Shown here: piece by piece, positions 8,809 to 50,306 of the stretch
Position numbering within the stretch: the first letter of the stretch is position 1
Layout of the letters: every line of letters starts with the position of its first letter
NCBI GenBank assembly: GCA_031973395.1
Contig: DALYDD010000001.1
Span: 10,894 to 61,199, forward strand
DNA: 50,306 nucleotides
Origin: Minisyncoccota bacterium
Lineage (GTDB): Bacteria; Patescibacteriota; Minisyncoccia; Phycocordibacterales; CAIZLB01
Reading direction: 5' to 3'
Program-made: the position numbers and the translations under genes
Notes under the pieces: model-generated
What the model was told of the DNA's origin: nothing
The model's database searches: none
The model's input: the letters and a program-made list of their open reading frames with translations, nothing else

Positions 8809-10455
8809 TTATTTTGTTACGGCTTTCGGTACGCGAACAATTATTTTATCCTGTGCAGAAATACCAGAAACAATTTCAATATCACCATTTCGATCAATAC
8901 CACCCGTGGTCACAGGAACAAGTGTTGCTTTACCATCAACTTCTTTGCTCCATTCTACAGATCCAGCCGGAGCAACCTTTACATGCTTTTTCCCTTTTTC
9001 AAGAACGATTGCTGACTGTGGTACTTTTACTACATCCATTCGACGATCTGTTTCTACAATGACATTGGCCGTGAGACCAGATTTGATTCGCTCATCTTGG
9101 CTTATAAATTGCAAACGAGTTCGATATGTCACAACACCATCTTTGATCGTTTCAGATAAATCTACCAAACTCACAGCCGCATCGAATATAACAGCATCGC
9201 CCAAAGCATCTAGGGTCACTTTAGCATTTTGCCCTACCCTCAATTTCGGAACATCATTTTCAGAAACATATGTTTCGATTTCAAATGCAGCATCGCTCAT
9301 GAGAGTAATGACAGGTGTCGCCGCACTTACCGATTCACCGGTCTTATACTCAACCCTTGTCACAATTCCATCAAAAGGTGCGACAATAATTGTTTTACTC
9401 AGTGATGCGGAAGCGCTTGAGATACCCGCCGCAGCGCTTTGTGCCTGTGCACGCTGAGCAGCAATTTCTTCTGCTGTGCTTCCAGATTGTTTTAATGTCA
9501 GTTGCTCTTTTGCACGGACCAAGCTGGATTGATTATTTTTCAAAGTATTTACCGCAGTATTCAATGCCTGAACCGCACTGTTTACACTCGTTCTTGCTGC
9601 AATGATGCCGGTTCGGTAAGTAGCCATGCTCGGATCATTGTTTAGGTTCTCACCCATTGAAGTCATGGCAACATTCAAATCATTGAGGAAAGTCTGAGTT
9701 GCAGTTACATATTTCTTTGCCTCTGCAATTTTCGAATCGTCGATAGTCGCCGGCGTAAGTGTAGTTACCAATTTTTGCCAAACAGGAAATTGTTCTGTGA
9801 GACGGAGGCGCTGCGATTCAACCGAATCTTGCAATCGCGGATTTTGATCGACAAAGAATCTCAACTCCGGATTAACACTTTGTGGTGAATTGAAAACTTG
9901 GTCCGCTTGATTTTTTACCGCGTCTTCAGATAGTGCATACGAATCTTTTGTCTCTTCAATCACCGCCAAAATCGCTTGATCTACATTTTGTTGCGCGAGC
10001 TGTACATCAGATTGCGCAATGGCAATTTCTTGGGGACGTGCACCACGCTGGAGCTCAGCTAATCGCGCCTGCTCACTCTGATAGCTTGCCTGACTTTTAA
10101 CCACACTCGCCTGATAGTCAGCATTTGAAAGTCTCGCCAATGATTTACCTTTCTTTACTCTATCCCCCACCTTTACCTCTACCGAGGCCAATCGGCCAGA
10201 TGTCTCAAATCCCATATCCACTTTTTGGGCTGGAGTCACTTTTCCAGTCACAGAAACTTCTTGGACGAATTCTCCTTTCTCTACAATCTTCAATTCATAT
10301 GTATCAGCAGATGCACCGCCGCCCATACTCATCAAAAGCGCGACGATGATCACAATCGCGGAAACCCAAATACGCTTTTTCTTTTTATTTGTCCAGATAT
10401 ACGTAAAAAGGCTTTTTATTTTGTCGAAGAAGTTTTTGATTTTATTTTTGATCAT
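8809..10455 (-). CDS. HlyD/MacA-family periplasmic adaptor
   Basis: N-terminal membrane anchor, long coiled-coil segment rich in A/Q/L, beta-rich C-terminus. First gene of an adaptor-permease-ATPase operon. Confidence 0.8.
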   Translation of the reverse strand: MIKNKIKNFFDKIKSLFTYIWTNKKKKRIWVSAIVIIVALLMSMGGGASADTYELKIVEKGEFVQEVSVTGKVTPAQKVDMGFETSGRLASVEVKVGDRVKKGKSLARLSNADYQASVVKSQASYQSEQARLAELQRGARPQEIAIAQSDVQLAQQNVDQAILAVIEETKDSYALSEDAVKNQADQVFNSPQSVNPELRFFVDQNPRLQDSVESQRLRLTEQFPVWQKLVTTLTPATIDDSKIAEAKKYVTATQTFLNDLNVAMTSMGENLNNDPSMATYRTGIIAARTSVNSAVQALNTAVNTLKNNQSSLVRAKEQLTLKQSGSTAEEIAAQRAQAQSAAAGISSASASLSKTIIVAPFDGIVTRVEYKTGESVSAATPVITLMSDAAFEIETYVSENDVPKLRVGQNAKVTLDALGDAVIFDAAVSLVDLSETIKDGVVTYRTRLQFISQDERIKSGLTANVIVETDRRMDVVKVPQSAIVLEKGKKHVKVAPAGSVEWSKEVDGKATLVPVTTGGIDRNGDIEIVSGISAQDKIIVRVPKAVTK

Positions 10456-10480
10456 GGGTTTAGGTTTATGAACTTATGGA

Positions 10481-10972
10481 TTATTTTGTATGGTTGATAT
10501 CGGTGCTGTGATAATGATCTGTATTTGTAGAAAGAGATTTTAAAACTTTTTTTAGATGATTCGATAATTGAAGTCGTTTTGGATTTGGTATAGGTTTGAA
10601 AATTCTAGCCAACTCTTTGTCGAGAACGCCCAAGGTCTTGGCCACCATCTTTTTTCCTTTTGGCGTTACCTTGAGCATGACCCGCCGCTTCTCATTTGGA
10701 TCAGATGTCCTTTGTATAAGTTTATCACGCTCTAGAAGTCCTGCCTGCCTACTAATCGCAGCCTCCGAGACCCCCCATAGCTGAGCAATCGCAGTCTGCG
10801 AGCATTCATAACTTTTCTTGCAGTCATGTGCCCGTTCGATTGAAACAAGAATCTTGAATTGGGATAGACCGTATCCCGTATTTTCTTTTATAAAAGAATC
10901 CATGTGCCGATCCAATACCATAGCCGCACAGAGCAGAGGTTCGACAAATTGAATCTTTGGCTTGCGAAGCAT
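10481..10972 (-). CDS. MarR-family transcriptional regulator
   Basis: Winged-helix segment SQTAIAQLWGVSEAAISRQAGLLERDKLIQR...RVMLKVTPKG. Lies directly upstream of the efflux operon. Confidence 0.85.
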   Translation of the reverse strand: MLRKPKIQFVEPLLCAAMVLDRHMDSFIKENTGYGLSQFKILVSIERAHDCKKSYECSQTAIAQLWGVSEAAISRQAGLLERDKLIQRTSDPNEKRRVMLKVTPKGKKMVAKTLGVLDKELARIFKPIPNPKRLQLSNHLKKVLKSLSTNTDHYHSTDINHTK

Positions 10973-11058
10973 AATGCTTAATATGTTAAGTATTTATGGG
11001 GAAAAAGTCAATGACAGGAAGGTGATTTTATGGCTTGAATATTGAGTTTTGGCCGCTC

Positions 11059-11086
11059 TTGACATCCTCACAAAGAGTACTACAAT
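11059..11086 (+). promoter_or_regulatory. sigma70-type promoter of cassette 1
   Basis: TTGACA (11059-11064), 16-nt spacer, TACAAT (11081-11086). The same block recurs at 11662-11689. Confidence 0.6.
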
Positions 11087-11194
11087 TTTAACCATGTTCA
11101 CCTGAAAATGACGACCTCGAGGGAGACATTCGAAGGACGGGAACATCGTAGAAAGAACAAAAACAAAACACCAATAGAGAAAGAAACCGCCGCC

Positions 11195-11491
11195 ATGAAA
11201 GTAACACCACTCGTTGCCCTCACCATCGCAACACTTACCGCCGACGCACTCGCCAAACAGACCAGGGTCTCAGAACGGTTTGCCGTTCCTGAGTTCACCA
11301 GCCTCATGAGAGACGCCAACCTCCCGACCCTGTTCATGCGGGAAGCCAGGATCTGCTACTTCGTCACCATCGAAGGCAAAGTCATGTGTGCGACCAAAGC
11401 CGACGGCCAGTGGGCCTGGAAAGTTGAGGAAGTCTCACCGACCACCAGGATAGCGAAAGCTGCAGGGGCCTACATCGCCGCCCATCCGTAG
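11195..11491 (+). CDS. small secreted hypothetical protein (cassette 1)
   Basis: ATG at 11195 gives a Sec-type signal peptide MKVTPLVALTIATLTADALA. GC-rich relative to neighbours. The track ORF starts further upstream at 11108. Confidence 0.55.
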   Translation: MKVTPLVALTIATLTADALAKQTRVSERFAVPEFTSLMRDANLPTLFMREARICYFVTIEGKVMCATKADGQWAWKVEEVSPTTRIAKAAGAYIAAHP

Positions 11492-11546
11492 CTCGAGACG
11501 ACGCCCAAAAAAACACGGTCTGAAGACCGAGAAGTTTGCCGTTAAC

Positions 11547-11576
11547 GCCCGACTCAGGTTCTAATCCTGGTCGGGC
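11547..11576 (+). terminator. GC-rich hairpin in the conserved 3' block of cassette 1
   Basis: GCCCGAC(T)CAGG / CCTGGTCGGGC, 11 bp with one bulge and a 7-nt loop. No clear T-run. Confidence 0.45.
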
Positions 11577-11661
11577 ATTGCCATCTCTGGACCTTTTTAA
11601 ATAGTCGCATTTGCGTCGAAATAGAGTTTATTTTCATATTATCTTGCAAAAAACGCATCTC

Positions 11662-11689
11662 TTGACATTCCACAAAAGAGTACTACAAT
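11662..11689 (+). promoter_or_regulatory. sigma70-type promoter of cassette 2
   Basis: TTGACA (11662-11667), 16-nt spacer, TACAAT (11684-11689). Near-identical to the 11059-11086 block. Confidence 0.6.
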
Positions 11690-11827
11690 TTTAGATGTTC
11701 AACCTTAATACGCAGGCCATTTCGAGGGGTGCGCATAGAGGACGGGAACAACTAAGCTCCATCCAACCTACATAGGGGTTTAGAAGAGTACCCAACAAAA
11801 AAAACACTGCATCACAGTACCACCGCC

Positions 11828-12439
11828 ATGAAAGCAAACCCGACACTAACCGCACTCACTACAGCAGGCCTTGTCTTGCTCACACCGGCACTACTCAGCA
11901 CCGAAGCTCACTCCGCCGAGATCACACTGGAAATTCCGGATGTCCTCGTTGTCGACGGCTTCTTCAACAAAGAAAACATGCCGGGGCCCGACCCCAGGTT
12001 AATTCCAATCAACATTGACCAGGTCACCAGATTCATATTTACCCAGAGAGACTCCATCGCCAAATACCTCGATGAGCTCCCTGAGCTCGATCGGGTAAGA
12101 GCCTCTGAGGAAGTAACCCGCAAGTTGCTTGCCGAACCGCAAGCACTCGACAGCCACGGTCTGGCCGATGCAGACCCTGCCGAGAACGTATTTGACGACG
12201 GCGAGAAAGGTATTCGTGTCATCACGTGCCGCCCCTTGCTCGTCTATCTCATCACTGACGACGAAGGCGGTGTTGAGTGGTACGAACTCCTCAAAGACAA
12301 GTCAGGAGGGCTCGTTCTGCACAAAATTACCGACAGTCGCGCCTACGAGCACCCTCACGTGCTTACGATCGAGACTCATTCGGATTCGGAGGACGAAAGT
12401 CGCCCACAAGGAGAAGCTGAAGGGGAAATCGACTCCTGA
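11828..12439 (+). CDS. secreted acidic hypothetical protein (cassette 2)
   Basis: Signal peptide MKANPTLTALTTAGLVLLTPALLSTEAHSA and an acidic C-terminal tail. GC-rich: my hand count of 11821-11880 is 33/60 G+C. Confidence 0.6.
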   Translation: MKANPTLTALTTAGLVLLTPALLSTEAHSAEITLEIPDVLVVDGFFNKENMPGPDPRLIPINIDQVTRFIFTQRDSIAKYLDELPELDRVRASEEVTRKLLAEPQALDSHGLADADPAENVFDDGEKGIRVITCRPLLVYLITDDEGGVEWYELLKDKSGGLVLHKITDSRAYEHPHVLTIETHSDSEDESRPQGEAEGEIDS

Positions 12440-12476
12440 GAATCGGCTCGCCAAGCCAAGAGAAGTTCGCCATAAC

Positions 12477-12503
12477 GCCCGACGAGGCTAATCCTCGCCG
12501 GGC
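12477..12503 (+). terminator. GC-rich hairpin in the conserved 3' block of cassette 2
   Basis: GCCCGACGAGG / CCTCGCCGGGC, 10 of 11 pairs with a 5-nt loop CTAAT. Homologous to 11547-11576. Confidence 0.45.
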
Positions 12504-12647
12504 ATTGCCATCCCGAGATCTTCCCACCCCCGACAATTCCCTCTTTACCTTTTTCCAAACTTAACGTATAGTGCAAGTCATATATTACAGGCCTGACCGC
12601 CTTTTATTTTTTACTCAAAATTTACACAAACTGAACCGTTTAATAAT

Positions 12648-14432
12648 ATGCAAATTCGAAATATCGCCATTATTGCCCATGTAGACCACGGCAAAACAAC
12701 TATTGTAGACGCTATGATGCGTGCCTCTGGCGCCGTCAAAGAAGGTGCATCCAGCATGGACTCTAATGCCCTCGAACAAGAACGAGGTATTACTATTTAT
12801 GCAAAGAACGCCTCTCTTACTTACAAAGGCACAAAGATTAATATCATCGATACACCGGGCCACGCCGACTTCGGTTCAGAAGTAGAGCGCGTGCTCCGAT
12901 CTATCGACTGCGTGATCTTGATTGTAGATGCCCAAGAAGGTCCAATGCCTCAGACTCGTTTCGTTCTCAAAAAATCTCTCGAGCTTGGCCTTCGACCGAT
13001 TGTTGTTTTAAATAAATTAGATAAACCAGCTGCTGATCCCCATCGAGTGCACGATGAAGTTCTCGAATTATTTATGGAACTTGGCGCTGATGACAAACAA
13101 CTCGACTTCCCTACCGTGTATGCAGTTGGTCGTGAAGGAAAAGCCAAAATCAAACTCGAAGATGGATTTGTAAACCTCGATCCTCTTTTCGATATGATTA
13201 TTTCTCATATTCCTGCCGCAGCCGCAGATGCAGCCGCTCCGCTCCAGGCACAACCATTCAACCTCGCATACGATAACTATCTCGGACGAATGGCTGTAGT
13301 TAGAATCTGGAATGGTACGATCAAGACGAATGCGAATGTTTTCGTAAAAAAAGCAGACGGTTCCATCAAGACTGGCCGCGTCACCAAGATTTTCGGTTTT
13401 GAAGGAATGGGCAAAAAAGATGTAGCCGAGGCTATGGCAGGTGACGTAGTCATGATCGCCGGTATTCCTGAAATTTATATTGGAGATACCGTCGCAGATG
13501 CTGAGACCACACCCGCATTGCCAACAATCACTGTCGACGAACCAACGATTTCATTGGGCTTCCTCGTAAATGATTCCCCTTTTGCAGGTAAAGAAGGAAA
13601 ATTTGTAACCAGCCGACAAATTCGTGACCGACTCGAAAAAGAGCTCGAGGTAAACGTGGGATTGCAGGTTGATTTCAATGAAGCAGATACATTCAAAGTA
13701 TATGGACGTGGAGAATTACACGTTGCGGTATTGCTCGAACAAATGCGACGTGAAGGTTTCGAACTTCAGGTTTCTCAACCAGAAGTTATTATGAAGGATA
13801 TTGACGGAAAGAAATGTGAACCATTTGAAGAAGTGATCATCGATACACCTGATGAGTTTTCTGGAGTTATTATCGAAAAACTCGGAAAGCGCAAAGGAAT
13901 CATGTCGAATATGATCCAGAAAAACGGCGGTACACGATTGTCATTTGAGATTCCAACTCGTGGACTACTCGGTTACCGAAGTCAGTTCGTTGTTGATACG
14001 CGAGGTGAAGGAATCATGTCGAGCCGTTTCGTAGGATTTAAACCTTATGCTGGCACTATTGAGAAACGTGCAGTGGGCTCGATGATCTCCATGGAAGCGG
14101 GAAAAGCTTTACACTTTGCCCTTGGTGGTCTACAGGATCGAGGAATTCTGTATATCACTCCCGGTACCGAAGTATATGCAGGTATGGTGATTGGCAATAC
14201 ATCAAAAGGTGAAGAAATGGAAGTGAACCCTACAAAAGGAAAACAACTCACAAACATGCGAGCCTCTGGGACTGACGCAACAGTATATTTGAACCCTGCA
14301 CAGGAAGTTACTATCGAGCGAGGACTCGAAATCATGACCGATGATGAATATTTGGAAATCACCCCTTTGAGCTCTCGTCTACGAAAGAAGTATTTGACCA
14401 AGACCGATCGAGATAAGGCCAAGAAAAAGTAA
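12648..14432 (+). CDS. typA: translational GTPase TypA/BipA
   Basis: [14 protein letters not shown] and NKLD motifs. 594 aa with a BipA-like C-terminal domain. Confidence 0.95.
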
Positions 14433-14450
14433 GATCTCAGCAAATCACTA

Positions 14451-14480
14451 AAAACCTCCCTGAAGCCCAGGGAGGTTTTT
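14451..14480 (+). terminator. intrinsic terminator after typA
   Basis: CCTCCCTG (14455-14462) / CAGGGAGG (14468-14475), followed by TTTTT. Confidence 0.8.
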
Positions 14481-14560
14481 AGTTATCCACAGCCCTCCTC
14501 GCATCCAGGAGGATTTCTTCATCTTTATTTCATCTACAATTGTGTATAAATAATGCCAAT

Positions 14561-15229
14561 ATGCGTATATTAATTATCGAGGACGACGAGCATTTGAGAC
14601 TTTCACTGAAGAAGGGTCTCGAATCTGAGATGTACACCGTGGACCATATGGCCGATGGAATTCACGGCTCCTATATTGCCCGCACCCACGAATACAATTT
14701 GATTATTCTTGATTATATTTTGCCAGGCAAAGATGGCTTAGCTATCGTAAAAGAAATTCGCGAGCAAGGCGTGGACTGCCCCATTATGATAATGTCCGTG
14801 CGCGGCGAAATTGACGACAAGGTGAATTTACTCGAATCCGGCGCCGATGACTATATTGTAAAACCTTTTACTTATCATGAATTCCGCGCACGAGTTCATG
14901 CCCTGACGCGTCGAAACTATAAAATAGTCGAGGAAAAACTAATTCTCGATGATCTGACAATTGATATGAAGCGTACAGAAGTCGTCCGAAACGGCGAACG
15001 TGTATATTTAACCCGAAAAGAATTTCTTATTTTGCAGAGCCTAATGCGCAGACGCGGACAAGTTGTAACACGCGGTGAATTACTTGATGAGGTTTGGAAT
15101 CGCGAAAGTGACCCTTTTTCAAACACTATCGAGGCCCATGTCAGAAATTTACGAAAGAAGGTCGAGAGCGGAAAGCGGATTATTCACACTGTTCCTGGAC
15201 GCGGATATAAGTTAGACCAAGGGGCTTAA
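14561..15229 (+). CDS. OmpR-family response regulator
   Basis: Receiver domain (MRILIIEDD...LDYILPGKDG) plus winged-helix trans_reg_C (LTRKEFLILQSL...VPGRGYKL). ATG at 14561; the track ORF starts at TTG 14540. Confidence 0.93.
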   Translation: MRILIIEDDEHLRLSLKKGLESEMYTVDHMADGIHGSYIARTHEYNLIILDYILPGKDGLAIVKEIREQGVDCPIMIMSVRGEIDDKVNLLESGADDYIVKPFTYHEFRARVHALTRRNYKIVEEKLILDDLTIDMKRTEVVRNGERVYLTRKEFLILQSLMRRRGQVVTRGELLDEVWNRESDPFSNTIEAHVRNLRKKVESGKRIIHTVPGRGYKLDQGA

Positions 15230-15645
15230 TTCCCCCAACTTGATCCAGTGTCAGCATCTTTTGTTTCTTCATAAAGATTTTATCTAAAATTGATGAGAAT
15301 TTAATGTCCTGTCTGATATCGTGATGATGTGCGATAAACGTATATAAATATATGCGAAATGCAAAATATCGGCACACGCTCAAACTTATTCACTAATAAA
15401 TATATATGATCCAGAAAATTTTGAACGGAACAATGAGTATCAAAGACTTGGTAACCATGAATCAGCGGAAAATCAATGAGGCTTTGGATTTGCCCTGGAA
15501 ATAGAAGAGGTTGATCCTGAAAACAGGGACCTGAGCCCCAACACATTCGCCCGACGGTCGAATTTGTATTTAAGACGGCTTTTAGTAGAATGATCGGCAA
15601 CAGCTGATTGTTTTACTATTTCAATGGTCAAAAAACCAATACACC

Positions 15646-17046
15646 ATGCTTAAACTAGTCCTAAAGCATTTTGGTCCTCGCTCAACGAACCCAGACATCC
15701 ATAGAAAGGAACTTGTTTTGAACTCTATTCTTGGGTTCTGTTTTTGTCTTATTCTAGTCTTTGAAATTCTTGCCACCAGAGATGATACAGGGAGCAGTCG
15801 CGTAAGTTGGCTATACCTCCTCCTCATCATCTCTCCGTTTTTCGCCTCTTATTACTTCTCGCGGATTGGCAAAGTCACACTCGCCTCGAGTATATTCATC
15901 GCAACATTCTCAGTTGGTATCTTATATGCAATGGCTCTTTGGGGCATTACACTTCCCGCCACCCTCTTATCACTCGTATTAATGACGACACTAACTGGCA
16001 TATTGGTGAGCAGCCGCGCGGGTTTTGTATATGCATTGGGGGCCGGGATTATTTTGGCTAGCTATGTATATCTATTTAATACTGGCGCAGTAGTACCAGA
16101 TTTGAGTTGGAGCAAAGATCATTTAGTATTCCCGGACATCATCGAACTCACCACTTTTCTCCTTTTCATCTCTGGCCTTTCTTGGATTTCAAATCGTCAG
16201 ATGGAATTATCACTTAAGCGTGCAAGAAATTCCGAGCATGAATTGAAACTCGAGCGGGACCAGCTCGAGGTCACGGTGGCCAATCGGACAAAAGCATTGG
16301 AGCAAGCACAGATCGAAAAGATTTCTGAACTTTATACTTTTATTGAATTTGGCAAATTATCCGCCGGCCTCATTCATGATCTTATGAGTCCGCTTAGTGC
16401 GGTATGCATAGAGTTGGAAACAAATAATAATCCCAATGTCCGATCTTCGCTTAATGTCTCGGCCAATAACCTCGTAAGCTCCGGTAGAAAAATTCAAGAT
16501 ATGATCAAAGCAGCAAGACGCCAGATTCAAATCAATTTAAAAGAAGAGTACTTCATTCCTCGAGATATTATCTTGGAAACAATCACTTTGCATAAACATC
16601 GTCTCCAAAAAGCGCAAATTATACTGCATCACAAAATCACCGCCGGCAATACCGTACGCGGATATCCCTCCCTCTTTTCACATATTATTACTAACCTTTT
16701 GAGTAATGCCATCGATGCCTGCGAGGATGCCAGGGTGCAATTCCGTGACAAAGAATACAGGCCCCAGATTTCAATCGATGCACACATGAATGGAAATACA
16801 TTAACTCTATCAATCAAAGATAATGGCATTGGCATTTCTCCAGAGATCGCCTCAAATATTTTCAATCCATTTTTTACGACAAAAGACAATAAGGGCTGTG
16901 GCTATGGCTTGCCAGCCTCAAAACATATAGCAGAAAAATATTTCCAAGGAGATCTCAAACTTATAAAACATTATTCCGTTCCAAAAATTTACCATAAGAC
17001 AAATCAGTTCCGTACTACTTTCGAGCTTATCGCTTCTTTCCATTAA
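15646..17046 (+). CDS. sensor histidine kinase
   Basis: About 5 N-terminal TM helices, H-box LSAGLIHDLMSPL, N-box NLLSNAIDA, G-boxes DNGIGI and GCGYGL. Confidence 0.85.
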   Translation: MLKLVLKHFGPRSTNPDIHRKELVLNSILGFCFCLILVFEILATRDDTGSSRVSWLYLLLIISPFFASYYFSRIGKVTLASSIFIATFSVGILYAMALWGITLPATLLSLVLMTTLTGILVSSRAGFVYALGAGIILASYVYLFNTGAVVPDLSWSKDHLVFPDIIELTTFLLFISGLSWISNRQMELSLKRARNSEHELKLERDQLEVTVANRTKALEQAQIEKISELYTFIEFGKLSAGLIHDLMSPLSAVCIELETNNNPNVRSSLNVSANNLVSSGRKIQDMIKAARRQIQINLKEEYFIPRDIILETITLHKHRLQKAQIILHHKITAGNTVRGYPSLFSHIITNLLSNAIDACEDARVQFRDKEYRPQISIDAHMNGNTLTLSIKDNGIGISPEIASNIFNPFFTTKDNKGCGYGLPASKHIAEKYFQGDLKLIKHYSVPKIYHKTNQFRTTFELIASFH

Positions 17047-26930: not shown

Positions 26931-27026
26931 AATAATACATAAGAGAAAATCCTTTGCCTCCGCAGGTTGATAGGGTCACCCTAATCGAAACCGAGGACAG
27001 CAAAGGATTTTCTCTTATGTATTATT
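26931..27026 (+). repeat. extended-hairpin element H1 (conserved core, private 26-bp arms)
   Basis: 26931-26956 is the perfect reverse complement of 27001-27026. The core 26957-27000 is shared with 27210-27264 and 37114-37168. Confidence 0.75.
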
Positions 27027-27100
27027 TGGTTGCGGGGCCAAGAATTGCACTTGGTCCTCAAGGTTATGAGCCTTGCATGCAACTGTTACACCTCCCCGCA
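27027..27100 (-). tRNA. atypical tRNA-Met-like gene (CAU), CCA encoded
   Basis: Acceptor TGCGGGG/CCCCGCA, then A and CCA. Anticodon arm CAAGG-CTCATAA-CCTTG, T arm CCAAG-TGCAATT-CTTGG. The D loop AACAGTT lacks GG. Confidence 0.6.
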
Positions 27101-27190: not shown

Positions 27191-27283
27191 AAAAATTATA
27201 ATCACTTCTGAAGTGCCTCCGCAGGTCGATCAAGTAACCCTAATCGAAACCGAGGACAGTACGAAGAAGTGATTATAATTTTT
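27191..27283 (+). repeat. extended-hairpin element H2
   Basis: 27191-27209 is the perfect reverse complement of 27265-27283. The 55-nt core differs from the H3 core at only 4 positions. Confidence 0.75.
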
Positions 27284-37094: not shown

Positions 37095-37187
37095 AAAAAT
37101 AAAAACAACCTCTTCGTGCTGTCCTCGGTTTCGATAAAGGTTACTTAATCGACCTGCGGAGGCACTTCAGAGGTTGTTTTTATTTTT
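37095..37187 (-). repeat. extended-hairpin element H3 (core inverted relative to H1/H2)
   Basis: 37095-37113 is the perfect reverse complement of 37169-37187. The core 37114-37168 is the reverse complement of the H2 core. The arm overlaps the pilC stop codon by 1 nt. Confidence 0.75.
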
Positions 37188-47090: not shown

Positions 47091-47184
47091 GGAGACGTGT
47101 CAGAGCGGTCGAATGTGCCTCTTTGCTAAAGAGGTAGGCTGCCTTAAAACGGCCTCGAGGGTTCGAATCCCTCCGTCTCCGCCA
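47091..47184 (+). tRNA. tRNA-Ser (GCU), class II, CCA encoded
   Basis: Acceptor GGAGACG/CGTCTCC, anticodon arm CCTCT-TTGCTAA-AGAGG, long variable arm, T arm GAGGG-TTCGAAT-CCCTC. Confidence 0.93.
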
Positions 47185-47185
47185 C

Positions 47186-47225
47186 AAAATAAAATGACCT
47201 GCACTGCTGCAGGTCATTTTATTTT
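47186..47225 (+). terminator. intrinsic terminator after tRNA-Ser
   Basis: GACCTGCA / TGCAGGTC stem extended by A/T pairs, with loop CTGC and a T-run. Confidence 0.8.
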
Positions 47226-47358
47226 GTCTCGAGAGATGGATGTATGAGAAAGGCGGAAGAGATGCCGAGCCAGCAGGCGAGGCTCTGAGCCGGGGTCGCG
47301 AAAATTTCTGAGCGACGGCGAGGAAATTATTCGTGACCGAAGACCGATGTCTCCGCCA
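47222..47358 (+). repeat. GC-rich structured element A1
   Basis: About 135 nt, nearly identical to 49728-49863. Foldable as a three-way junction. Ends in GTCTCCGCCA, identical to the tRNA-Ser 3' end. Confidence 0.7.
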
Positions 47359-47491
47359 AGAAAACAAAGTATCGAGGATGACTCAAGTGCCCCGAAAGGG
47401 GTATTTGATTTACAATAAGAATTATAGTTATAACTAAAAACTGCTTATAAATGATTGTATTCAACAATTTATCGATTTAACTGTGATTTAT

Positions 47492-48301
47492 ATGGGAAGA
47501 AAAAATAAACAAAATATTACAAGGGTCCAACATTTTATACCACGTTTTATTTTGAGAAGATTTACAAATAAACAAGGAAAAACCAACTTCGTTGACAAGC
47601 GATACGGAAGTAAGGGCAAAGCTCCTGACGGGGCTATGTACAAGGATTTTTTCTACGAACATGATGATTTCAACCCAAACGAGATAGAAGACCTTCTTGC
47701 AAGTAGGGAAAATATTTATGCTCCAATTATCGAGAAGATTTTAAGTTACAAAACCTTAACAATAGATGAGCATAAAATATTGATAGAATTTAGGCATACT
47801 ACTTATTATCGATCAAATGAATTTTTTGGATTTCACAGATTCCAAAAGCGTAGAGGTGAAAATGATTGGATGGAAAGATGGGATTGGAAATCAATTAATG
47901 GTCTTTATAGTTCGGACGACTGGGACAAAGATATAAAAAAGTCTCAGCTCAGGGCTATAAAATCTGTCATTAGCGGAGATGATGCCGCTTATTCTGTTAG
48001 CTTGTGGACGCCCATCTGTTTTCTTTTTACCTCGAAAGGAAAAAAGTTTATGGTAAGCGATAGCGGCTCTCTGTGTAGAGGAGATGAAATGAACGGTATT
48101 GTCATCATCGTCCTTTCTCCTTTGCATGCCATAATGTTTCCACGAACGATAAAAGCCGTCGAATTAATGGAGAAACTAAGAGTAAAAAACGATCAATCTA
48201 CTATTATCTTCGAAGACATATCAGATAAAGATGTAGACATAATTAACAAAATGGTTTTGGAAGATTCATTTGAATATTACATAGATCCAAATATTAACTA
48301 G
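47492..48301 (+). CDS. DUF4238-like protein
   Basis: N-terminal HFIPRFILRRF and central FMVSDSGS match my memory of DUF4238 signatures (HYVPxFYLRxF, ..SDNP..). AT-rich: 17/60 G+C in 47521-47580. Confidence 0.6.
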   Translation: MGRKNKQNITRVQHFIPRFILRRFTNKQGKTNFVDKRYGSKGKAPDGAMYKDFFYEHDDFNPNEIEDLLASRENIYAPIIEKILSYKTLTIDEHKILIEFRHTTYYRSNEFFGFHRFQKRRGENDWMERWDWKSINGLYSSDDWDKDIKKSQLRAIKSVISGDDAAYSVSLWTPICFLFTSKGKKFMVSDSGSLCRGDEMNGIVIIVLSPLHAIMFPRTIKAVELMEKLRVKNDQSTIIFEDISDKDVDIINKMVLEDSFEYYIDPNIN

Positions 48302-48636
48302 CGACCCGCATACCACGGCTTCGCGCCAAGAAAAGCGCCAATATATCCTTACAGGACCTCGAAACCCTGGTACTTAACCCACCTGCTCCGCAAAATTTAA
48401 ATACCCCGGCTTCCCTGCCGCGGTATTTAAATTTCTGAGATGAAGGGTGAGAAAGCCGGACGAAGTTGCGCAATGAGCCGGCATCGTGTAACAATTGCGA
48501 CAACACCCTATCGGCGAAGTGCAACAAGGAGGCGGGGTCGACGGGCTTTTTGCGAAGCAAAAAGAACCGGTGACCGAATCCCTCTGTACTAAGTTCAAAA
48601 AGAAGCGCAACACTTTCTTTACTTTCTTTTAAGATC
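48302..48636 (+). repeat. composite GC-rich non-coding block A3, related to A1/A2
   Basis: Starts with a copy of the A 3' end (..CGCGCCAAGAAAA). Contains a 13-bp perfect hairpin (48393-48405/48422-48434), TTTCTGAG, and a GGGGTCG...GTGACCGAA helix as in A1. Confidence 0.6.
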
Positions 48637-49728
48637 ATGGAGCCGAGAAAAATATTTACCCTAGATGCCAGAGATAATGTCCTGCTCGAAGTCATAAGTC
48701 ATGATGTTGATAAGACAGCTATCTACAAATTCATAAACAAAACCTTCGATGAGATGGTTTCCATACTAGAGCAGAAAGGTATTCAGTATGACGAATTGAA
48801 AAATGCCTTGATACCACATCGCGACAAAAGAGAAGTGGCTTTTACCTTTAATCGAGAAAGTATAGATTCAGGCTGGTATGGAAACGATGTCTTCACTCAA
48901 CTCATTCCGCTTTTAGACAAAAGAAGTTCTCATAGCATTTTGAATGGCGATATGTTGGGCTTTGACAAATATAAAGAAAATATAAAAGAAAAGTTTTTAA
49001 ATAATTTGATTATGGCACGAGATTTTGAATATAAAGTCCAACACCAATTCTATTTGGTGTATCTGAATAATCTCACAGATGAAATGGTGAAAAATATCAA
49101 CGATAGATTATTAAACTACACACCCTATGTCGGTTTTCTTGATCTGACACACAACTCTTTTATGAAAACGTATCTTTCTATGACGTTAGCCAATTGCTGT
49201 CTCAAGTTTAAGGATATGGTCATATTTGGCCATGAGCCAGACCGAGATAATACTGAGAACGTAAACATGTCAGGATATCGGTTTGAGGAAAATGACTATG
49301 TTTGCAAAAGCATTAGTGATGATTATTACGGATTATTTCTTTCGTACAAAATAGAACGGCAAACTTTCCCTAATGAAAAAGATACAGGCTTTTCCATAAA
49401 TGCACTTACTGACGATATTCATCAAGTGCCGGATCTCGATATTATCATAGAGGAACCTAAACTGCTCTACTTACTAAAAGAGAAAGAAGCGAATCTTAAG
49501 CGAGCCGAGCTACTCGGACTTACCACAGAAGAATTAGCCAAGTTCATAAAGAGTAAGATTGAGATGAACTATGTCTACAATCTCACATATCTACCAAAAC
49601 ACAATACCTTGAAGTTTAATGTGATGATTGATGTAAAAGGTAAAAAGATGGACACACAAGTCAAGATTGTGGCCTCTTTAGAGTATCAGCCCCAAAGTAG
49701 GCAGTTGAGGCTTATAACCCTGTTTTAA
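48637..49728 (+). CDS. orphan hypothetical protein (363 aa)
   Basis: Long AT-rich ORF with no TM segment and no motif recognised. Starts directly after block A3. Confidence 0.6.
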   Translation: MEPRKIFTLDARDNVLLEVISHDVDKTAIYKFINKTFDEMVSILEQKGIQYDELKNALIPHRDKREVAFTFNRESIDSGWYGNDVFTQLIPLLDKRSSHSILNGDMLGFDKYKENIKEKFLNNLIMARDFEYKVQHQFYLVYLNNLTDEMVKNINDRLLNYTPYVGFLDLTHNSFMKTYLSMTLANCCLKFKDMVIFGHEPDRDNTENVNMSGYRFEENDYVCKSISDDYYGLFLSYKIERQTFPNEKDTGFSINALTDDIHQVPDLDIIIEEPKLLYLLKEKEANLKRAELLGLTTEELAKFIKSKIEMNYVYNLTYLPKHNTLKFNVMIDVKGKKMDTQVKIVASLEYQPQSRQLRLITLF

Positions 49729-49863
49729 TTTTGTCGAGAGATGGATGTATGAGAAAGGCGGAAGAAATGCCGAGCCAGCAGGCGAGGCTCTGAGTCGAGG
49801 TCGCGCAAATTTCTGAGCGATGTCGAAGAAATTATGCTTGACCGAAAACCGAGGTTTCCGCCG
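49728..49863 (+). repeat. GC-rich structured element A2
   Basis: Near-identical to A1. Closing helix GGCGGAA (49757-49763) / TTCCGCC (49856-49862) is perfect. Confidence 0.7.
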
Positions 49864-50235
49864 GGAGGATATCTTTTCAAAAAACTAATTATATTGAGTT
49901 TTTAGCAATTTAAATTTGATGACTTTGCAATTTCCACAAACGCATTACAAATACACACTTTTATCATCTTTATTTTGAGCCCTTATTTAAATACGGGTAC
50001 TCAAAACTATTGACAACTTTCTGTAAGTGTTTTTAGAGATATTTGTATAACAGTTATCCACTAAAATATCATGTACTCGATGCTATGATAGACACGCCCG
50101 AAAGAGCTCTCTCGACGGCCCACATGCTCCGACTACACCACTAGTCCATTAAATAAGTTTGTAATAGAACCTATGCCATGGCTAATGATGCAAATCGTTG
50201 CTTGTGGTATAGGCTCTTATTTTTTAAGAGTGTAC

Positions 50236-50306
50236 GGCGGGTTGGCAGAGTAGTCGAATGCACCAAGCTTATACCTTGGAAGACTTTTACTGGGTCTCGC
50301 AGGTGC
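50236..50306 (+). tRNA. class-II tRNA-like gene, truncated by the window end; anticodon loop reads UAU
   Basis: GGCGGGT-TG-GCAGAGTAGTCGAATGC-A-CCAAG-CTTATAC-CTTGG, a long variable arm AAGACTTTTACTGGGTCTC, then GCAGG-TGC.. The body resembles the tRNA-Ser at 47091. Confidence 0.45.

Follow-up and report, generated by a model that had tools for sequence, protein, structure and literature searches.

Do two AT-rich genes lying side by side behind a serine transfer RNA (tRNA) gene make up one defence system, or did they come to stand there separately? The question was raised by a locus near the end of a 50,306-nucleotide (nt) stretch of contig DALYDD010000001.1 from a Minisyncoccota bacterium, which we call the window at its full length. 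The two open reading frames (ORFs), ORF1 and ORF2, are placed between the gene for tRNA-Ser(GCU) and a second tRNA gene, and they are bracketed by three GC-rich non-coding blocks, A, B and C. An earlier note, made from the letters of the DNA, had taken genes and blocks together for a candidate undescribed defence module. We found that the island, with its defence genes next to a tRNA, is of an ordinary kind, and that its frame, a structured element spread Patescibacteria-wide, is unusual. The element is described first, then the locus and its genes, and the possible histories of the island are weighed thereafter.

Copies and distribution of the element

Blocks A (47224-47357) and C (49729-49862) form a direct repeat of 134 nt with 90% identity, where none is expected by chance, and no other copy of this repeat was present in the window. 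The shared sequence begins at about 47213 in A and about 49718 in C, in the T-run just before the 5' arm of the element, and the stop codon of ORF2 therefore overlaps the repeat. As a probe we took the central 20-mer of A and C (GCCGAGCCAGCAGGCGAGGC), and scanning it against one genome per species gave 40 loci. Twenty-nine of these were found in Patescibacteria (Saccharibacteria, Kaiserbacteria, Paceibacterota and Minisyncoccia), and the other 11 were chance matches, of which ten fell into coding DNA of bacteria with a high G+C content and one into an archaeal metagenome-assembled genome (MAG). Scanning of metagenomes for the same 20-mer added 80 loci, most of them with the exact 20-mer. A covariance model, R1, was then built from 31 copies. 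It finds 101 copies, with a typical element length of 110-150 nt, and in the window it matched nothing besides A, B and C.

The position of the copies was regular, normally with one copy behind a tRNA or tmRNA gene. A tRNA gene on the same strand was found within 110 nt upstream of 62 copies, at a distance of 20-90 nt for most of them, and the tRNAs concerned represented 16 amino-acid families. In loci L014 and L028 the upstream gene was that of transfer-messenger RNA (tmRNA), next to smpB, and in L018, L024, L040 and L117 one copy stood behind each of two or three neighbouring tRNAs. The genes on the other side showed no such regularity. Among 161 ORFs within 3 kb 3' of 69 distinct copies no protein family had more than four members. 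The element is non-autonomous and tied to the tRNA, not to the neighbouring gene.

No existing family accounted for the blocks. Comparison of the window blocks with Rfam 15 gave chance-level scores only at E <= 10, and the canonical copy of L047 had no match; tmRNA, permuted tmRNA, hammerhead and other Rfam families were rejected as identities of the blocks on these chance-level scores. Template and variable repeats of a diversity-generating retroelement were likewise rejected, since A and C differ at bases other than adenine too and neither copy is coding. Full-text literature searches found no description of the element.

Kaiserbacteria also contained copies without tRNA-derived arms, either in tandem (L033 5896-6161, also L115 and L134) or behind protein-coding genes (L016, L032 and L099). 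The hairpin with a CUGC loop, described below, still preceded these copies.

Fold of the element and origin of its arms

The consensus fold has two hairpin domains enclosed by paired arms, with the helices numbered P2-P7 in this analysis. Domain 1 is made of P2-P3-P4 and carries symmetric tandem G.A loops and an AGCA loop, and domain 2 is made of P5-P7 and occurs in two variants. In the alignment of 101 copies fitted to R1, 97.4% of the cells were paired as compared with 76.6% in shuffles, and 17 of the 18 pairs had changes on both sides. The covariation score was 0.503, while shuffles gave 0.151 (none of 500 reached the observed value) and slid registers 0.088 at most. An independent alignment with MAFFT, analysed by RNAalifold, gave 11 compensatory pairs out of 18. 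The otherwise invariant P4 stem was replaced by A-U pairs in L138, with the AGCA loop kept. G.U and U.G pairs numbered 50 against 7 for A.C and C.A pairs, and from this excess the folded strand is the tRNA-sense strand. Single-sequence folds had z-scores of -3 to -4 in six loci. Both marks of a structured RNA, compensatory changes beyond the controls and strand-specific G.U pairs, were present in the element.

The arms were derived from the tRNA next door. The 3' arm repeats the 3' end of the neighbouring tRNA exactly and in direct orientation, usually beginning 18-20 nt before that end, inside the T-loop, and the copy extends 0-30 nt past the end of the tRNA gene (it passes the end in L038, L047, L040, L037 and L086). 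The 5' arm carries this stretch in inverted form, comprising T-loop, T-stem and the 3' strand of the acceptor, and a hairpin, frequently CUGC-looped, often sits between its acceptor part and its T-stem part. With the cognate tRNA the direct repeat had a mean length of 13.8 nt (up to 45) versus 6.2 nt with non-cognate ones, and the inverted match 9.7 nt versus 5.7 nt. In the fold the arms reproduce the acceptor/T-stem helix of the neighbouring tRNA, as a minihelix mimic closed by the core.

Signs of possible spread at the DNA level

A duplication that goes beyond the end of the tRNA lacks a reason at the RNA level, and it was therefore counted as evidence for events at the DNA level. Units were stacked behind one tRNA in L025, L095 and L066, and in L033 two copies stand in tandem at a locus that lacks a tRNA. 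In L025 (4766-5180) and L095 (5060-5555, minus strand) cores unrelated to the main one were found in the same architecture, consisting of trailer repeat, hairpin, inverted T-arm, core and directly repeated tRNA 3' end; behind tRNA-Pro and tRNA-Lys they form a series together with the main element. The architecture appears to define a superfamily with several cores. Vertical co-inheritance of a core with its tRNA was rejected, as core identity does not track the isoacceptor: the median was 0.605 for the same isoacceptor in different genomes and 0.637 for all other pairs. The core of copy A was 98% identical to that of a copy behind tRNA-Ser(TGA) in another Saccharibacteria MAG (L030), 88% identical to Kaiserbacteria copies and 90.5% identical to the core of C.

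The element would be transcribed together with the tRNA and would spread by orientation-specific insertion into the T-loop, duplicating the 3' end of the tRNA. Repeated insertions would stack the copies behind one tRNA.

Layout of the locus in the window

The positions and strands given in the earlier note for tRNA-Ser, the two ORFs, the blocks and the tRNA-like end were all borne out, and every feature of the locus lies on the plus strand. The locus is anchored by the tRNA-Ser(GCU) gene at 47091-47184 (ARAGORN; Rfam tRNA 51.1 bits), which has an encoded CCA. An inverted repeat at 47184-47227 forms a perfect 20-bp hairpin with a CUGC tetraloop and A/T runs on both sides. It looks like a terminator and is probably part of the element unit, because the same CUGC-loop hairpin precedes the element at many other loci (homologous hairpins in L014, L060, L015, L024, L042, L047 and L099). 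Copy A, at 47241-47357, is intact (R1 106 bits, E 3e-24; fold z-score -3.3) and consists of the 5' arm, domain 1 (P2-P3-P4), domain 2 as a long AU-rich hairpin, and the 3' arm. Its P4 reads GCCGAGCC-AGCA-GGCGAGGC, and its 3' arm ends in GTCTCCGCCA, the last 10 nt of tRNA-Ser. Between A and ORF1 there is an AT-rich spacer (47358-47491, G+C 0.284), in which reading of the sequence revealed, at 47390-47410, a small CCCC-GAAA-GGGG hairpin and then a T-rich run.

Block B (48302-48636) is a decayed composite, recognized from an inverted repeat, a weak fit to R1 (21.2 bits, E ~1e-3) and alignment with the element of L055. It includes an 18-bp hairpin at 48393-48434, just 3' of ORF1, and then decayed remnants of element copies. 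The remnant at 48502-48593 has kept domain 2 and lost the central hairpin, and its 3' arm, CGAATCCCTCTGT, matches T-loop and T-stem of tRNA-Ser. Copy C (49746-49862) is partly decayed; it fits R1 with 95 bits but folds less well than A (z-score -0.8). Sharing with the end of tRNA-Ser amounted to 10 exact nt in the 3' arm of A, CGAATCCCTC.GT in B and CCGCC only in C. The G+C content of the blocks was 0.567 in A, 0.499 in B and 0.515 in C. They had been described as GC-rich and of one sequence family; the former was correct for all three, the latter fully for A and C, while B with its 21 bits is a decayed composite. Copy C is followed by an AT-rich non-coding stretch (49863-50235, G+C 0.343) and by the 5' part (71 bases) of a class-II tRNA gene with a long variable arm (50236-50306; Rfam tRNA 22.6 bits), which is cut by the end of the window. 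The anticodon loop of this cut tRNA is CTTATAC and reads as TAT, which is unexpected together with a long variable arm.

ORF1 and ORF2 had G+C contents of 0.348 and 0.359, respectively, i.e., below all 37 other genes of the window (0.425 +/- 0.034, minimum 0.362; z -2.3 and -1.9). The counts made by hand in the earlier note, 17 of 60 positions for 47521-47580 and 26 of 60 for 12661-12720, were exact, and the gene used for comparison is indeed typA (TIGR01394, 839 bits). No mobility gene was found among the ORFs of 45.5-50.3 kb, in agreement with what had been seen before, and a scan of the region for promoter and terminator consensus sites gave sites no commoner than in shuffles.

The two genes

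ORF1 (47492-48301, 269 aa) had been said to look like DUF4238, and it matched the Pfam profile PF14022 well above the cut-off (E 3.8e-26, 92.6 bits versus a cut-off of 27), with residues 13-261 aligned to profile positions 2-273 of 281. Acting as a single gene, one DUF4238 member of the P2 prophage hotspot conferred strong resistance to T7, and the authors called its molecular function unknown (Rousset et al., 2022; PMC9122126); later defence surveys list "DUF4238" among the defence systems. By its profile match ORF1 is a member of this known single-gene defence family, and it may act as an abortive-infection-type effector. Its own subfamily comprised 26 homologues with 46-68% identity, and all three homologues with a named source came from Patescibacteria; judged from these, the subfamily is Patescibacteria-specific and divergent. 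The neighbours of the homologues varied in five out of five contexts, which fits a single gene without an obligate partner. One homologue lay in a prophage-like region with S24 repressor, RusA and ParB-methylase, others adjoined a Bsp6I-type restriction enzyme with its methylase or an AAA_13 protein, and one was placed beside a tRNA-Ser pair. PADLOC had no model matching ORF1 or ORF2, the former being recognized as a known defence family by Pfam.

An odd class-II "tRNA-Ser(ACT)" with the anticodon loop TTACTAA adjoins tRNA-Ser(GCT) in L055 (7558-7647, minus strand), L138 (5870-5957, plus strand) and L139 (1541-1628, plus strand). In the last two it lies 43 nt 5' of the DUF4238 gene that resembles ORF1 most. 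In bacteria, A34 is unusual in tRNAs other than tRNA-Arg.

ORF2 (48637-49728, 363 aa, from the ORF list) had been regarded as an orphan, which it is not: at least 230 homologues from many phyla were found at E <= 0.01. Among the 119 matches listed, identity was 39-83% and nearly all were full-length. The few that carried a name were from Bacteroidia, Acidobacteria, Planctomycetota, Armatimonadetes, Campylobacterota, Sphingobacteria and metagenomes of the candidate phyla radiation (CPR)/Patescibacteria. No model of Pfam, PADLOC, PHROG or NCBIfam matched ORF2, and a profile search against PDB sequences for its function was empty. The AlphaFold2 model was confident, with a predicted local distance difference test value (pLDDT) of 91 and a predicted template modelling score (pTM) of 0.90. 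Charged residues that are invariant in ORF2 are R12, E66, D105, K238, E240 and R241.

Homologues of ORF2 stand alone, including on plasmids. The one with 83% identity (L003/L004) is flanked by rpoD on one side and by a run of small genes without annotation on the other, after which come a MazG-like protein, an SLFN-type helicase and an EVE protein, with a UvrD/PD-(D/E)xK protein about 3.4 kb further on; this region (9322-15700) is possibly a defence island in a groundwater ultra-small bacterium. Other homologues were found with an HNH protein, with a large N6-methyltransferase, HipA and an integrase, with the Wadjet JetABCD operon on a Pseudomonas aeruginosa megaplasmid, and with a helicase, a DUF5677 protein and a multiubiquitin protein on a Robbsia plasmid. 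Because members of the family occur singly in defence islands and on plasmids, we infer that ORF2 is a second single-gene defence candidate, by association alone, and it could be an abortive-infection-type effector as well.

The two families were never adjacent in 11 other contexts examined, six of ORF2 and five of ORF1. For this reason we conclude from gene neighbourhoods that ORF1 and ORF2 are two independent single-gene modules. The suggestion of an undescribed system with this particular combination did not hold, neither by adjacency nor in view of the family of ORF1, which is already described as a single-gene system. Most of what the earlier note had named as grounds for rejecting the suggestion was observed.

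Possible history of the island

Relatives sharing the gene upstream of the island were searched by protein search and contig look-ups. In L055 (53% identity for the shared upstream gene) tRNA-Ser(GCT) is followed by a terminator hairpin, a single copy of the element and then the next class-II tRNA; the interval is free of ORFs, and by this layout L055 is an empty-site analogue. The idea of a tRNA-adjacent insertion of accessory or defence type, put forward in the earlier note, is supported by this locus, by the anti-phage activity known for DUF4238 and by the defence neighbourhoods of ORF2 homologues. The contig of a second relative, L053 (1-90), ends exactly inside the 3' end of tRNA-Ser, and a synteny search with the upstream protein in Joint Genome Institute (JGI) metagenomes found no relative. 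Short-read contigs from the sample of the window itself (L001 and L002; SRR4000971) break inside A, near B and inside C, which is to be expected because the sequence is repeated. Assemblies of Patescibacteria probably break up systematically at tRNA genes owing to this element family.

We favour, with some reserve, the reading of the region as a 2.5-kb accretion islet behind tRNA-Ser(GCU) of a probable relative of Saccharibacteria, in which two independent accessory genes were caught between stacked copies of the element. Most economically, there would be three stacked generations, with A as the newest, then B, then C; ORF1 would belong to the unit that ends with B, and ORF2 to the unit that ends with C. 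The genes would have arrived as cargo of inserting units or by recombination between copies.

A number of observations weigh against this reading and the spread that it presumes. Among about 100 copies, genes between tRNA and element (2564 nt) were seen for copy C alone, so that cargo is a single case. Only 10 nt of the 3' arm of A match tRNA-Ser, and A and C both carry the hairpin and 5' arm typical of tmRNA-trailing copies; the local history was not simple. The G+C at third codon positions (GC3) of ORF1 and ORF2 is ordinary and native-like (z -0.8 and +0.2). The closest DUF4238 homologue (68%), in L138, adjoins a tRNA-Ser(GCT) gene and a remnant of the element, so that the arrangement could in part be old. 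Near the 69 distinct copies there is no recurrent recombinase, reverse transcriptase or transposase, the core had no match among the 2.9 million viral contigs of IMG/VR, and to our knowledge no insertion mechanism yields an inverted copy of a local target. That the folded molecule is RNA rather than single-stranded DNA is suggested by the G.U asymmetry and the co-orientation only. As to the proteins, the AlphaFold2 model of ORF1 (pLDDT 80) had no fold match in PDB, and that of ORF2 none in PDB or BFVD beyond a ferredoxin-like subdomain (best Foldseek E 0.02 and 0.003, respectively). A phage origin of the element or of either gene was rejected on the IMG/VR result and on tblastn of both proteins against 50,697 phage records, which was empty.

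Alternative explanations

The first alternative, in line with the earlier note, takes ORF1 and ORF2 as one undescribed two-gene defence system; the blocks would be its structured regulatory or guide RNAs. The genes are indeed neighbours that share the strand and a low G+C, with a structured block ahead of each, but their families did not co-occur elsewhere and DUF4238 works alone (PMC9122126). Nor do the blocks travel with the genes: they are generic elements trailing tRNA and tmRNA genes across Patescibacteria, about 100 copies with unrelated and mostly housekeeping genes downstream, and they are absent beside the ORF2 homologue with 83% identity. The blocks do not regulate ORF1 and ORF2, and we give scarcely any credence to a two-gene system. 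It is also very unlikely that there is no island at all and that the genes are ancestral at the tRNA-Ser locus, their low G+C being mere amino-acid composition. Here the GC3 values count in favour. The shift in composition lies in amino-acid make-up and not in codon usage, so that of the earlier statement that the genes are compositionally foreign the lowest G+C in the window stood, and as an argument for foreign origin it is weak. The tRNA-Ser(GCT) next to the closest DUF4238 homologue points the same way. However, in L055, which has the upstream gene in common with the window, the interval between the two tRNAs is free of ORFs, the flanks of L138 show no further relation, both families are patchy across phyla and occur in mobile or defence contexts, and repeats bracket the genes.

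Two further explanations concern the element itself. The island could be a classical tRNA-targeted islet, left by an integrase element at tRNA-Ser, with A and C as attL and attR, the integrase lost or acting in trans, and the element being the att-proximal part of an integrative-element family. The T-loop is a known crossover sublocation for tRNA- and tmRNA-targeting integrases, reportedly described by Williams in 2002, and a literature search yielded papers on integration at tRNA and tmRNA genes. The direct repeats begin in the T-loop, both tRNA and tmRNA are targeted, and a 134-nt repeat flanks the genes; yet no integrase was present in the island and none recurred near the 69 copies, typical units measure only about 150-200 nt, and the viral contigs gave no matches. 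An att site has no need of compensatory, strand-specific covariation in its core, and the inverted arm matches the local tRNA, so we regard an integrase islet as distinctly improbable. A vertically inherited, non-mobile RNA mimicking tRNA, matured from tRNA trailers by RNase P, RNase Z and the CCA-adding enzyme, would explain why the element always stands on the same strand 3' of a tRNA, its strong covariation and G.U bias, arms whose acceptor/T-arm minihelix equals that of the tRNA next to it, and why no mobility protein is linked to it. The island would then be a local duplication of the element plus an unrelated gene insertion. Exact duplication up to 30 nt past the tRNA end and units with different cores stacked behind one tRNA speak against a purely inherited mimic, as do core similarity independent of tRNA type, with near-identical cores at different tRNAs across genomes, and the tmRNA-type arms of copy A behind tRNA-Ser. 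We consider it unlikely.

The accretion islet can be extended to a bolder and quite tentative picture, which we hold to be possible but doubtful. The copies would be undescribed Patescibacteria-wide mobile elements that insert into T-loops of tRNA and tmRNA genes, with a structured core, a guide-like arm complementary to the target, a regenerated tRNA 3' end and several core families (L025 and L095). Stacking behind a tRNA and able to take genes along, they would provide these tiny genomes with an integrase-free platform on which defence genes are captured. On this picture ORF2 would represent a new single-gene defence family, and its fold would be new as well.

Other features of the window

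A second non-coding family was noticed at 26955-27002 (minus strand), 27214-27259 (minus strand) and 37117-37164 (plus strand). About 46 nt of conserved core (CTGTCCTCGGTTTCGATTAGGGT.AC...ATC.ACCTGCGGAGGCA) make up the "loop" of hairpins that are long, A/T-rich and specific to their locus, and the family had no Rfam match at the gathering threshold. It shares the logic of the main element, namely a conserved core between locus-specific inverted repeats. One copy stands directly behind a tRNA with anticodon CAT (27030-27100, minus strand; Rfam 50.5 bits), which was missed by ARAGORN and has an unusual T-loop, GTGCAATTC.

Significance and comparison with known systems

The defence module itself is modest, with one known anti-phage family and one good candidate for a new single-gene system whose confident predicted fold is unlike anything solved. 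The larger value lies in the repeats, some 100 covarying and strand-specific copies tied to tRNA and tmRNA 3' ends across Saccharibacteria, Kaiserbacteria, Paceibacterota and Minisyncoccia. If the element acts as RNA, it would be a new and abundant class of tRNA-mimicking RNA across a quarter of the diversity of bacteria. Should the element be mobile, the target-copying arms point to an insertion mechanism without known parallel, which could explain how ultra-small genomes gain accessory genes without obvious integrases.

The island was compared with the systems that it resembles most. As regards the DUF4238 system, ORF1 matches PF14022 over the whole domain and stands alone, and its relatives are found in prophage and defence neighbourhoods; it differs as a divergent Patescibacteria subfamily with no match in PADLOC, in phage records or among solved folds. 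For the element, each of the classes considered, i.e., integrase islands, attC arrays, miniature inverted-repeat transposable elements (MITEs) and tRNA mimics, is at variance with it in at least one tested defining feature.

Islands set by tyrosine integrases at tRNA and tmRNA genes, together with accretion of the cis-mobilizable element (CIME) type, in which the elements lack an integrase and have att sites on both sides, share with the element the targets, the direct repeat started in the T-loop, the stacking and the accessory or defence cargo. They differ in that here there is no integrase, the units of about 150-200 nt are usually free of cargo, the core covaries, and there is an extra inverted copy of the target. 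The attC arrays of integrons also have genes separated by structured imperfect palindromes, and strand-specific folding matters in both; similarly, the attP hairpin of CTX phage has a fold whose stem reproduces a duplex equal to the target site. Unlike integrons, the element has no association with IntI or Xer and no R or L box consensus, its core is conserved in sequence as well as in structure, and a cassette-like arrangement was seen in one case in about 100 copies: genes between copies occurred only in the window, where 45.5-50.3 kb contains no recombinase.

MITE-like repeats (Correia, RPE and REP/BIME) are, like the element, short, non-autonomous, multi-copy, intergenic, hairpin-forming and probably co-transcribed. 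The terminal inverted repeats of the element are, however, copied from the local tRNA and not fixed, it stands downstream of tRNA or tmRNA in one orientation, and the target duplication is long and variable (5-45 nt). The tRNA mimics, such as the tRNA-like domain of tmRNA, YrlA, mascRNA and viral tRNA-like structures, have in common with the element an acceptor and T-stem helix with a real tRNA 3' end, and the element's hairpin is placed where the D and anticodon arms would emerge. In contrast to these mimics, the T-loop is here replaced by a large conserved domain with no Rfam match, and the element copies whichever tRNA lies upstream.

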